Shown in pieces: positions 10,823 through 12,525 of a stretch of 32,197 nucleotides of DNA. Under the pieces are notes generated by a model, which saw only the letters and a program-made list of their open reading frames with translations, was not told the DNA's origin and did no database searches. The stretch comes from a virus. Its lineage: Duplodnaviria > Heunggongvirae > Uroviricota > Caudoviricetes. Location: positions 1 to 32,197 of IMG/VR virus record IMGVR_UViG_2660237933_000002; one strand, 5' to 3'. A program made the position numbers and the translations under genes. Each line of letters opens with the position of its first letter. The first letter of the stretch is position 1.

Positions 10823-10923
10823 CCATCTACATCACTGAGCTAATAGCAGGGTTATCGTTACTAATGGTTCTTACTGTATATATTATTAAGTATATTCTTT
10901 ATGCGAATAAAAAAACTAATTGA
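10819..10923 (+). CDS. Possible small hydrophobic peptide, 34 aa ([34 protein letters not shown])
   Basis: ATG overlaps the helicase stop (ATGA); single predicted TM helix; overlaps the start of the HNH gene, so coding is uncertain. Confidence 0.2.
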
Positions 10924-11512
10924 TCACGATGAGCTTCTGTCAACATTATCATATGACTCAGAAACAGGAATATTTAAATGGCTAAAAACAAATTCAGTAG
11001 TAAGAGTAAAAGGTAGTATTGCTGGAGGTGTTAGTGGTGGTTATATATGCATTAGCATAAATAATGTTTTGTATTATGCGCATAGACTTGCTTGGTTCTA
11101 TGTATACAAAAAATGGCCTCCTAAGTTTATTGATCATGTAAATGGGAACAGACTTGACAATAGGATTTCAAATCTAAGACTGGCAACAGAAGAGCAGAAT
11201 GCAAGAAACATTGTAGGGAATAGGTTAAACACATCCGGTGCGATTGGAGTGTCTTGGTATAAGCCAACTGGCAGGTGGAAGTCTTATGTTGGTTATAAAA
11301 ATAAGACAATATCGTTAGGGTATTTCGATAGCAAAGAAGATGCAGCATTCATAGCAGCACTAGCAAGAAAGAAACTATATGGAACTTATGCGAGTAAAGC
11401 ACTTAATTGCGAGCATGAGCTTTTATCTCAATTTAATAATGATGAGGATAAACTTGCGGAATATCTTAAGGAAAAATCTAAAAGGACTCGAAAGCGTGTT
11501 AAAAACAGATAA
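10901..11512 (+). CDS. Free-standing HNH homing endonuclease with AP2 DNA-binding domain, 203 aa
   Basis: HNH_3 motif IDHVNGNRLDNRISNLRLAT; AP2-like GVSWYKPTGRWKSYVGYKNKTISLGYFDSKEDAAFIAALARKKLYG; AT-rich; sits between the helicase gene and the tR2-like terminator. Confidence 0.75.
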   Translation: MRIKKLIDHDELLSTLSYDSETGIFKWLKTNSVVRVKGSIAGGVSGGYICISINNVLYYAHRLAWFYVYKKWPPKFIDHVNGNRLDNRISNLRLATEEQNARNIVGNRLNTSGAIGVSWYKPTGRWKSYVGYKNKTISLGYFDSKEDAAFIAALARKKLYGTYASKALNCEHELLSQFNNDEDKLAEYLKEKSKRTRKRVKNR

Positions 11513-11545
11513 AGGCCTGCTGGTAATCGCAGGCCTTTTTATTTG
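11513..11545 (+). terminator. Rho-independent terminator (tR2-like) upstream of ninB
   Basis: AGGCCTGC-TGGTAATC-GCAGGCCT perfect 8-bp stem followed by TTTTTATTT. Confidence 0.8.
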
Positions 11546-11560
11546 GGGGAGAGGGAAGTC

Positions 11561-12001
11561 ATGAAAAAACTAACCTTTGAAATTCGATCTCCAGCACATC
11601 AGCAAAACGCTATTCACGCAGTACAGCAAATTCTTCCAGACCCAACCAAACCAATCGTAGTAACCATTCAGGAACGCAACCGCAGCTTAGACCAGAATCG
11701 GAAGCTTTGGGCTTGCCTTGGTGACGTTTCGCGTCAGGTTGAATGGCATGGGCGCTGGCTGGATGCAGAAAGCTGGAAGTGTGTGTTTACCGCAGCATTA
11801 AAGCAGCAGGATGTTGTTCCTAACCTTGCCGGGAATGGCTTTGTGGTAATAGGCCAGTCAACCAGCAGGATGCGTGTAAGCGAATTTGCGGAGCTATTAG
11901 AGCTTATACAGGCATTCGGTACAGAGCGTGGCGTTAAGTGGTCAGACGAAGCGCGACTGGCTCTGGAGTGGAAAGCGCGATGGGGAGATCGGGCTGCATG
12001 A
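11561..12001 (+). CDS. ninB: NinB (Orf-family recombination mediator), 146 aa
   Basis: MKKLTFEIRSPAHQQNAIHAVQQILPDPTKPIVVTIQERNRSLDQNRKLWACLGDV... is near-identical to lambda NinB (from memory); start at the ATG at 11561, not the track's TTG at 11543. Confidence 0.9.
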   Translation: MKKLTFEIRSPAHQQNAIHAVQQILPDPTKPIVVTIQERNRSLDQNRKLWACLGDVSRQVEWHGRWLDAESWKCVFTAALKQQDVVPNLAGNGFVVIGQSTSRMRVSEFAELLELIQAFGTERGVKWSDEARLALEWKARWGDRAA

Positions 12002-12525
12002 CTATCAAATCAAATACGCCAGCGTCAGATAGGTATCGGCTTATTGAGGATTATCTGTATTTAGACGGAGATACAGTCAGGTACAAAAAGGACTCGCTAA
12101 AACACCCCAACCACAGCCACCGGGCCGGAGATGAAATTAAAACATCGATAAATGGATCTGGGTATAGACAGGTGTGTTTTGCAGGCATTCAGATGTTTGT
12201 TCACGTAGTTGTTTTTGCGCTGCACAACAAAAGAATGCCATTGAAAAATATTGACCATATTAACGGAAACAGGCTGGACAATTCCCCAAAAAATCTTAGG
12301 GAGGCAAGCCGGATAGCAAACAGCCGAAATCAGAAAACTAAGTGCAATAGCCGTTCTGGAATAAAAAATGTTTTATGGAACAAGCAAAAAAATAAATGGG
12401 CCGTTCAAGTGCGCACAGATTTTGGCCGGTTGCATTTTGGGTTCTATGAAGATCTTGAGCTTGCTGGTTTGGTTGCCAGTGAGGCTATCAACAAATATCA
12501 CGGACAATATGCGAGGGTTGAATGA
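11998..12525 (+). CDS. Second HNH-AP2 homing endonuclease, about 175 aa
   Basis: NIDHINGNRLDNSPKNLREAS HNH motif plus AP2-like NVLWNKQKNKWAVQVRTDFGRLHFGFYEDLELAGLVASEAINKYHG; start at the ATG at 11998 overlapping the ninB stop (ATGA); AT-rich. Confidence 0.7.
   Translation: MTIKSNTPASDRYRLIEDYLYLDGDTVRYKKDSLKHPNHSHRAGDEIKTSINGSGYRQVCFAGIQMFVHVVVFALHNKRMPLKNIDHINGNRLDNSPKNLREASRIANSRNQKTKCNSRSGIKNVLWNKQKNKWAVQVRTDFGRLHFGFYEDLELAGLVASEAINKYHGQYARVE

Follow-up and report, generated by a model that had tools for sequence, protein, structure and literature searches.

Introduction

An HNH nuclease joined to an AP2-type DNA-binding domain is an already described architecture of homing endonuclease genes (HEGs) (Magnani, Sjolander and Hake, 2004, Plant Cell, PMC520932; "IPA-HNH" HEGs, Barth et al., 2023, PMC10448857), and the latter work also outlines the general HEG mechanism. 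Here, we analyze two genes of this kind, HNH1 (10901–11512, 203 amino acids) and HNH2 (11998–12525, 175 amino acids), in a stretch of 32,197 nucleotides (nt) from a Caudoviricetes virus (IMG/VR record IMGVR_UViG_2660237933_000002, positions 1 to 32,197). This whole stretch is called the window; positions refer to it, and features lie on its plus strand unless stated otherwise. We consider it likely that HNH1 and HNH2 are two independently acquired, free-standing HEGs of an I-HmuI-like HNH_3 plus AP2 type, carried as discrete cassettes at fixed sites of the pR operon and spread by homing. Free-standing HEGs are favored over core or domesticated genes because the sites are fixed and exactly bounded, occupancy is low, the two elements assort independently, decayed and lost copies exist, base composition is foreign, the active sites of the window copies are intact, and HNH2 brings along a diverged copy of the sequence that it disrupts.

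The window is a lambdoid Escherichia coli prophage with the early-right operon order cII, O, DnaB-type helicase, nin genes and Q. Among the late genes downstream of Q are the gene for a small terminase subunit of the P27 type (Pfam Terminase_4) and, next to the terminase genes, an HNH gene. Its backbone DNA is matched at 97–99% by Stx-converting and other lambdoid phages and prophages.

Like the HNH-AP2 HEGs described before, HNH1 and HNH2 have an N-terminal HNH followed by a C-terminal AP2 domain, are free-standing, and occur sporadically in phages. They differ in being found in temperate lambdoid phages at defined pR-operon sites. The ICP1 proteins are too divergent for Pfam HNH_3 (Barth et al., 2023, PMC10448857), whereas HNH1 and HNH2 are matched by it directly. 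With I-HmuI of Bacillus phage SPO1 (PDB 1U3E) they share, at the level of predicted fold, an N-terminal beta-sheet DNA-binding region and a beta-beta-alpha-metal core, as well as the D-H...N...N spacing (H, +12, +21). I-HmuI, however, is intron-encoded and has a helical C-terminal DNA-binding domain, whereas HNH1 and HNH2 are free-standing and carry AP2; sequence identity to I-HmuI is about 19–21%. As proteins, both are ordinary members of the HNH-AP2/I-HmuI-like family.

The seg and mob HEGs of T-even phages are optional genes that border conserved genes, and their spread is attributed to break-induced recombination in which flanking markers are co-converted ("intronless homing"). HNH1 and HNH2 are likewise optional nuclease genes between, or at the edges of, conserved genes. 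Unlike them, the T-even genes belong mostly to another nuclease family (GIY-YIG for seg) and have virulent hosts, and HNH2 is fused in frame to the start of a host gene.

In the Allomyces atp6 case, an HEG is reportedly fused to, or carries, a piece of a host gene. In gene 31 of phage epsilon34, the eaE N-terminus is fused in frame to an HNH HEG (PMC2629481), and in Armillaria mitochondria truncated atp9 copies lie beside free-standing LAGLIDADG open reading frames (ORFs) (PMC6506933). HNH2 shares with these cases an HEG in frame with a resident-gene fragment, a partial duplicate alongside, or both. It differs in joining both features at the 5' end of the gene, where a captured start and a diverged replacement start come with a stop/start overlap. 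The ShiLan element (Arsenault et al., 2025, PMC11855218) is also an HNH homing element within a gene for a phage DNA methyltransferase and likewise shows no features of an intron or intein. ShiLan lies mid-gene, its HNH is not in the frame of the methylase, and reading through the insert gives the methylase an extra loop, whereas HNH2 is in frame at the 5' end and terminates, after which dam restarts.

In phage HK022, genes 56 and 57 (AF069308, 32354–33047) encode the same 34-amino-acid ORF as in the window and a protein 100% identical to HNH1, again between the helicase gene and the terminator. HK022 differs in having three small ORFs between the terminator and a different ninB allele, and in carrying neither dam nor HNH2. 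HNH1 has been in GenBank since the HK022 genome deposit; HK022_56 and HK022_57 are annotated there only as "hypothetical protein", and PGAP names HNH1 and HNH2 "HNH endonuclease". Literature searches on ninB/HNH homing and on the HK022 nin region found no description of HNH1 or HNH2, nor did the literature yield a lambdoid-phage description of the captured start and bundled replacement end of HNH2; a 2025 lambdoid survey in Genome Research mentions only "sporadic HNH nuclease genes". We found no description of the anatomy at the level of the sites, of the natural pair formed by the empty allele of lambda and the filled one of HK022, or of the HNH2 arrangement together with scars that keep its replacement end.

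Two Cassettes at Fixed Sites

Both ORFs were present where the original prediction had placed them (HNH1, ATG..TAA; HNH2, ATG..TGA). The comparison with relatives lacking them, which it had proposed, yielded precise filled and empty alleles with base-level insertion points and flanks that are 97–99% identical. In both cases, the sequence found at the empty site is either split by the insertion or lost to it. The related sequences compared with the window are labeled L001–L017 (loci), P0002–P0006 (HNH2-family proteins) and H99 and H100 (HNH1 copies). The AT-richness noted for the two genes was confirmed: GC content is 0.34 in the HNH1 cassette and 0.41 in the HNH2 cassette, against 0.51–0.53 in the helicase exteins, ninB and the dam body.

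Population counts were made in 5,426 complete E. coli genomes. The backbone (10700–12700) occurs in 2,112 of them, at 3,220 places. An HNH1 cassette was found in 126 genomes (138 places, up to 3 per genome), and the uninterrupted module of small ORF, terminator and ninB at about 3,100 places in 2,087 genomes. The full HNH2 cassette is present in 34 genomes; the intact junction between A-type ninB and A-type dam is present in 1,021, to which many junctions between B-type ninB and A-type dam are added. About 4% of the cognate sites are thus filled for HNH1, and at most 3% for HNH2, and neither is a core gene. All four combinations exist: both elements in the window and L001, HNH1 alone in L002, HNH2 alone in L005 and L006, and neither in lambda. 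HEG copies are 95–100% identical among genomes. Decay is evident in split or frameshifted copies of HNH1 (H99, H100) and in frameshifted, truncated or internally deleted copies of HNH2 (P0002, P0004–P0006). In E. coli strain 503440, an IS100 (IS21 family) lies within the 5' part of HNH2 (L010 633–2434), and short HEG ORF fragments precede the B-type dam.

The HNH1 Cassette

The HNH1 cassette (658 nt, 10851–11508) was delimited by comparison with the empty sites of L005, which has the same helicase and ninB, and of lambda. It starts about 28 nt past the helicase stop. Microhomology makes its boundaries ambiguous by about 5 nt, and filled alleles can be told apart from position 10846 on, where G/A splits 7 filled from 7 empty loci. 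The empty site reads ...GCTAATAACAGG|CCTGCTGGTAATCGCAGGCCTTTTT... (the 3' side is also given as CCTGCTGG), and the filled site ...GCTAATAGCAGG|GTTATCG...(HNH1)...ACAGATAAAGG|CCTGCTGG.... Between ren and ninB, phage lambda matches the empty site at nearly every base, and the insertion point corresponds to about 40,598/40,599 in lambda.

It had been proposed that each HEG starts at, or overlaps, the end of a conserved gene. This is true of HNH2, whose ATG overlaps the ninB stop (ATGA), but HNH1 starts 79 nt past the helicase stop and does not abut the helicase gene. It interrupts a small ORF and the hairpin at the tR2 position. The HNH1 start overlaps this small hydrophobic ORF (10819–10923, 34 amino acids, identical to HK022_56), which is itself coupled to the helicase stop by an ATGA overlap. 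In its lambda form the ORF has 26 amino acids (phrog_5907, E 1.6e-19; lambda 40567–40647, L017 1068–1148) and spans the hairpin. Its ATG overlaps (ATGA) the stop of the preceding gene, be it ren or the helicase gene, and its stop overlaps the start of the next ORF, by ATGA with the ninB ATG in lambda and L005. HNH1 breaks it after about codon 10, and the cassette supplies a new hydrophobic tail, giving the 34-amino-acid ORF. The homology common to all upstream contexts begins exactly at the small-ORF ATG (10819). The phrog_5907 ORF is unannotated in the lambda RefSeq record; its three C-terminal versions (lambda type, L006 type and HNH1-cassette type) are all open and hydrophobic.

The terminator expected between HNH1 and ninB was found by a terminator scan as a strong intrinsic one (11511–11538; 11511–11545 for hairpin and T-run). 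It is essentially identical to the lambda ren-ninB spacer, where tR2 of lambda lies. The insertion point falls within the 5' arm of the hairpin, and the last bases of the cassette (..AAAGG) rebuild that arm. With a computed stability of -20.7 kcal/mol (z -3.8) in the filled allele versus -16.9 in the empty one, the hairpin would, if anything, be stronger after insertion. HNH1 lies upstream of the terminator and should thus be transcribed together with the replication genes.

HNH1 is found in 19 phage records at 95% identity or more, and the remaining phage matches are below 60%. The genes preceding it are unrelated to one another: DnaB with or without an intein, a toprim primase, HK022 P, or a hypothetical ORF, which in L004 comes after a gene for a DnaC-like ATPase and in L003 after the intein-bearing helicase.

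In L006 (3153–3385), the same CAGG junction holds a different terminator hairpin and a small Cys-rich ORF. This module contains no HEG, and the HNH1 site is thus a general hotspot for module exchange and not one for the HEG alone. Another variant is a chimeric HNH gene in a Logan contig (SRR10380363; L016 3919–4965). Its first 197 nt and the 82 nt upstream of its ATG are 99% identical to window positions 10819–11097, the remainder is a different HNH-AP2 gene abutting rusA, and the stretch from ninB to ninG is gone. This loss is apparently a deletion through recombination between two paralogous HEGs at different sites of the nin region.

The HNH2 Cassette

HNH2 follows an A-type allele of ninB (11561–12001; Pfam NinB, 1.3e-54; PGAP start in L001), encoding an Orf-family recombination mediator, and precedes the phage dam (12522–13052; Pfam Dam, 2e-65), encoding an N6-adenine methyltransferase. 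It is not simply intergenic. In the HNH2-less loci L002 and L003, dam comes directly after ninB with an ATGA overlap, the Dam N-terminus is MTIKSNTPAHDK-DCWQTP, and the A-type ninB/dam junction reads ...ACGCCAGC ACACGACAAG GACTGC.... HNH2 begins MTIKSNTPA-SDRYRLIED..., and its first 26 nt (11998–12023) are identical to the dam start of L003 at 26 of 26 positions and to that of L002 at 25 of 26. The HNH2 N-terminus is thus a captured 5' end of A-type dam, comprising the ATG and first 9 codons (MTIKSNTPA); this start occurs in no other aligned member of the HNH2 family. The insertion cassette itself (537 nt, 12024–12560) replaces 10 nt, ACACGACAAG, of HNH2-less dam and lies in frame within the dam 5' end after codon 9. 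HNH2 therefore uses the ATG of dam, the upstream ribosome-binding region and the ATGA coupling to ninB.

At its 3' end the cassette carries a replacement dam 5' end of a second, B type (12522–12560, 13 residues). The ATG of this B-type end shares an ATGA with the stop codon of HNH2 and lies behind a GAGG ribosome-binding motif that the cassette itself provides. Because the replacement end comes with this overlapping ATG, a full-length Dam ORF is restored without splicing. From DCWQTP on, the dam body is 98% identical to A-type alleles, and the A- and B-type 5' ends are homologous but diverged (23 of 39 nt identical). PGAP starts the dam of HNH2-bearing prophages (L001 5707) 3 nt downstream of the ATG, at ATT; the ATG overlapping the HNH2 stop seems to us the more plausible start.

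Within the E. coli set, the B-type end is confined to the 34 genomes with HNH2 and to about 8–10 loci that keep the last 45–76 nt of the cassette, and we rejected the idea that it is an ordinary independent dam allele because every occurrence there goes with HNH2 or its 3' remnants. Three of these 8–10 loci were inspected and are deletion scars. In L008, a CTATCAA at the beginning of HNH2 has been joined to a second copy near its end, leaving a 14-codon mini-ORF, and in L009 ninB is fused to the final 28 nt of HNH2. In L007, two GAGGG repeats are joined and the junction reads ...GGGAGGGTTGAATGA; it is a derived form, because the untouched junction of B-type ninB and A-type dam (L003) ends ...GGCTGCATGACTATC. 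All three scars keep the B-type dam end, and in each the stop of an upstream ORF once more lies right at the ATG of dam or a few bases beyond it.

The only moderately diverged relative of HNH2 is P0003 (L013), whose HEG is 77% identical in amino acid sequence. The L013 Dam has a B-type N-terminus (10 of 13 residues identical) on a body only 49% identical to that of the window, and nucleotide similarity between the two loci is about 77% across 12033–12570 and then falls away. Since HEG and Dam N-terminus are similar while the dam bodies have diverged, the replacement 5' end travels with the HEG, either within the cassette or as flanking sequence of the donor, and not with the dam body. Which gene lies upstream makes no difference to the HNH2 lineage: it may be A-type ninB, C-type ninB or DUF1367, and B-type ninB stands beside scars. 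Distant HNH2 relatives (50% identity or less) have no dam linkage and lie at unrelated sites in other phage types, as is expected for lineage-specific targets. A scan of a one-genome-per-species collection for HNH2 relatives gave a single irrelevant match of 39%, its E. coli representative being without the element.

It is conceivable, and we propose it tentatively, that HNH2 is a splicing-free homing cassette that invades the coding 5' end of dam, hijacks its start, ribosome-binding region and ATGA coupling, and brings a presumably cleavage-resistant replacement end, so that translation of Dam would come to depend on translation of the HEG. If so, this coupling would create a mild "addiction", favoring either an intact HEG or a clean deletion, which is what the three scars look like. 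Were the A-type dam 5' end the target, the cassette would supply an immune version of it, as a minimal element of a "bring your own immune target" kind. HNH1, rebuilding the small ORF and the terminator, would then be a parallel case.

Protein Family and Predicted Fold

Pfam HNH_3 (PF13392) matches HNH1 with 57.8 bits and HNH2 with 42.6 bits (gathering score 24.8), and the PHROG family phrog_99, "HNH endonuclease", matches them with E-values of 7e-72 and 6e-43. The motif noticed at the outset, IDH(V/I)NGNRLDN...NLR, is present in both. The original prediction called the genes paralogous, which is correct insofar as they belong to the same broad family. However, with a protein identity of 33% (E 7e-19), and because each has closer relatives elsewhere, they are best seen as distant, independently acquired members of that family and not as a recent or local duplication.

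The catalytic HNH residues are kept and invariant on alignment: D78, H79, N91 and N100 of HNH1 among 63 aligned homologues, and D86, H87, N99 and N108 of HNH2 among 61. We take their roles, an Asp-His general base and the two Asn of a beta-beta-alpha-metal motif, to be those of I-HmuI D74/H75/N87/N96 by analogy. Neither loss of catalytic residues nor core-gene status thus speaks against the reading as free-standing homing endonuclease genes, which the comparison supports.

AlphaFold models of the two proteins are confident, with pLDDT values of 92.6 (pTM 0.82) and 90.6 (pTM 0.77). Foldseek matched both to I-HmuI (1u3e_M) with probability 1.00 and weak E-values (1.8e-3 and 1.7e-2). The global rmsd to I-HmuI is high, 14.3 Å for HNH2 and 5.9 Å for HNH1, which we attribute to the elongated multi-domain shape. 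The C-terminal domain of both models consists of three strands and a helix. It superposes on the plant AP2 domains of TEM1 and AtERF1 at 1.3 Å in HNH1, and on that of TEM1 at 1.5–1.9 Å (probability 0.96–1.00) in HNH2. Pfam AP2 is below threshold in HNH1 (28.7 bits versus a cut-off of 33.3, E 1.6e-6) and gives no match in HNH2 even at E ≤ 10, so the AP2-type domain claimed for both ORFs holds at the level of predicted fold. A PDB sequence search returned weak AP2 and I-HmuI matches only for HNH1, and no meaningful match for HNH2.

Other identities were considered and rejected. PADLOC, as a test for defense nucleases, gave only a weak match to its generic "HEase homing endonuclease" model (E about 7e-4). 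A terminase-associated HNH of the HK97 gp74 type does not fit, as HNH1 and HNH2 are PF13392 proteins placed in the replication/nin region. A separate PF01844 HNH gene (17962–18312, E 1.9e-16) lies directly upstream of TerS and TerL; its arrangement is that of the HK97 gp74-type packaging HNH, not of a homing endonuclease. An intron-borne HEG was rejected because no Rfam intron family matches 10500–13200 and the HNH1 and HNH2 cassettes are just about 50 nt and 35 nt longer than the ORFs they carry; the sole Rfam match in that interval was a chance, sub-threshold Thr_leader over the terminator. HNH2 ends in a stop codon and dam restarts, so it is not an intein. A promoter scan found no plus-strand sigma-70-like site inside either cassette, and therefore we propose no separate HEG promoter.

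Homing and Alternative Explanations

By analogy with known HEGs, we infer the homing mechanism, the nuclease activity, the target sites and super-Mendelian inheritance as follows. Cassette-bearing and cassette-less lambdoid genomes would meet in one cell, through co-infection or when a phage encounters a resident or induced prophage. The HNH enzyme, acting as a monomer, would nick or cut the allele that lacks the cassette, either right at the insertion point or close to it. The break would then be repaired by recombination functions of the phage or the host with the cassette-bearing genome as template, copying the cassette and some of its flank, and the filled allele would be immune, its site having been split or replaced by the insertion.

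Several points weigh against this view. Enzymes of the I-HmuI type nick one strand, which makes the efficiency of homing uncertain, and free-standing phage HEGs often cut some distance away, so that targets spanning the insertion points are an assumption. Lambdoid mosaics exchange modules by general and illegitimate recombination, and presence/absence polymorphism alone is no proof of nuclease-driven mobility. HEG copies (95–100% identical) are not clearly more uniform than the backbone (97–99%) and thus give no clear sign of recent spread. Finally, it is by parsimony that we judge which way the dam junction has changed.

The original prediction had allowed that the genes might be domesticated. 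As accessory nucleases kept for the benefit of the phage, they could cut and exclude competing lambdoid genomes without copying themselves, stimulate recombination-dependent replication alongside NinB, NinG and RusA, or regulate through AP2. Both window ORFs are intact with invariant catalytic residues, and they sit in a recombination-rich nin region with tight packing and translational coupling to their neighbors; the predicted coupling of Dam to HEG translation in the HNH2 allele could select for an open ORF. Phage satellites are also reported to have recruited DNA-binding domains of HEGs as regulators (Barth et al., 2023, PMC10448857). Nevertheless, we consider domestication unlikely. Only about 4% and at most 3% of the cognate sites are occupied, and several independent pseudogenes, the IS insertion and deletion scars show that copies are frameshifted, disrupted and deleted. 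PADLOC offers no defense family beyond its weak generic homing-endonuclease model, and exclusion of competitors is a usual by-product of homing rather than an alternative to it.

A further alternative is that the cassettes are passive passengers of mosaicism, "moron"-like modules shuffled by general or illegitimate recombination, with nucleases that are inactive or irrelevant to spread. In line with this, the left edge of the HNH1 module is a general mosaic boundary in all upstream contexts (the small-ORF ATG, 10819), the same CAGG junction borders the non-HEG module of L006, and the microhomologies at edges and scars (CTATCAA, GAGGG) point to illegitimate recombination. Mere passengers, however, would not explain well why the catalytic residues and the whole predicted fold are conserved, or why both elements recur, 95–100% identical, at exact nucleotide positions in many backgrounds. 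Moreover, HNH2 brings a diverged copy of the sequence that it disrupted, the signature of donor-flank co-conversion or target replacement. We judge passive shuffling to be quite improbable.

That the polarity at dam is reversed, with the HNH2 arrangement ancestral, A-type dam produced by deletion and MTIKSNTPA derived from the HEG, is very improbable: HNH2 deletions do occur (L007–L009) and the 78%-identical P0003 also starts MTDKS.. in a different dam background, but no other member of the HEG family has the MTIKSNTPA start, A-type junctions outnumber HNH2 by more than 30 to 1, the deletion products observed are all B-type and none A-type, the 10 nt ACACGACAAG have no source in the HNH2-bearing allele, and the A- and B-type N-termini are homologous over their whole length (KS.TP....DCW; 23 of 39 nt), so that the A-type sequence is a genuine dam 5' end and not an HEG fragment.

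Implications

Phage homing biology comes mostly from virulent T4-like phages. Here, at least two HNH-AP2 lineages recur at exact sites in temperate lambdoid phages, among them relatives of Stx-converting phages, and public genomes offer every state of these sites, whether filled, empty, decayed or scarred. Since HK022 has HNH1 and lambda has the empty site, the phages whose genetics is best understood can be used to test for homing, marker exclusion and co-conversion around the P/ren-ninB boundary. If active, the two elements would be recombination hotspots at the replication/nin boundary and would help to explain mosaic junctions and nin deletions such as that of L016. The anatomy of HNH2 bears on how an HEG enters a coding region while the host gene is kept alive without intron or intein.

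Other Elements in the Window and Its Relatives

As predicted, an intein-bearing DnaB helicase gene adjoins the HNH genes, and three endonuclease-type selfish elements (HNH1, HNH2 and the helicase intein) lie inside about 3.5 kb. The gene (8429–10822) matches Pfam DnaB and DnaB_C, the latter in two stretches. The intein (9032–10048, 339 amino acids) has a LAGLIDADG endonuclease domain and sits in Walker A (GMGK|T) as a precise in-frame insert relative to the intein-less allele of L002 (1377 nt), whose exteins are identical to those of the window at 454 of 458 positions. Its Pfam matches are LAGLIDADG_3 and, weakly, Hom_end and Hint (Hom_end_hint), and its GC content is 0.455 against 0.52–0.53 in the exteins. 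Residue 1 is a non-canonical Ala, the C-terminus is HN and the +1 residue is Thr; a Trp follows a block-B-like NH motif, and there is a Cys in an EECLC segment. These features suggest non-canonical splicing that may be class 3-like.

Related prophages have more HEG-type genes at other fixed operon sites (L004 396–1040 and 5045–5194; L005 5040–5430; L007 4559–4612), namely one for a GIY-YIG nuclease, located between cII and O, and a third HNH-AP2 gene, which is truncated and has a copy of ninF on either side.

On the minus strand of the window, beside the cI-like repressor, lies a two-gene cassette (4398–5330 and 5327–5806) matched in PADLOC by the candidate defense pair PDC-M63B (E 7.5e-45) and PDC-M63A (E 1.1e-41; Pfam DUF6932). 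It is probably a prophage-encoded defense moron.

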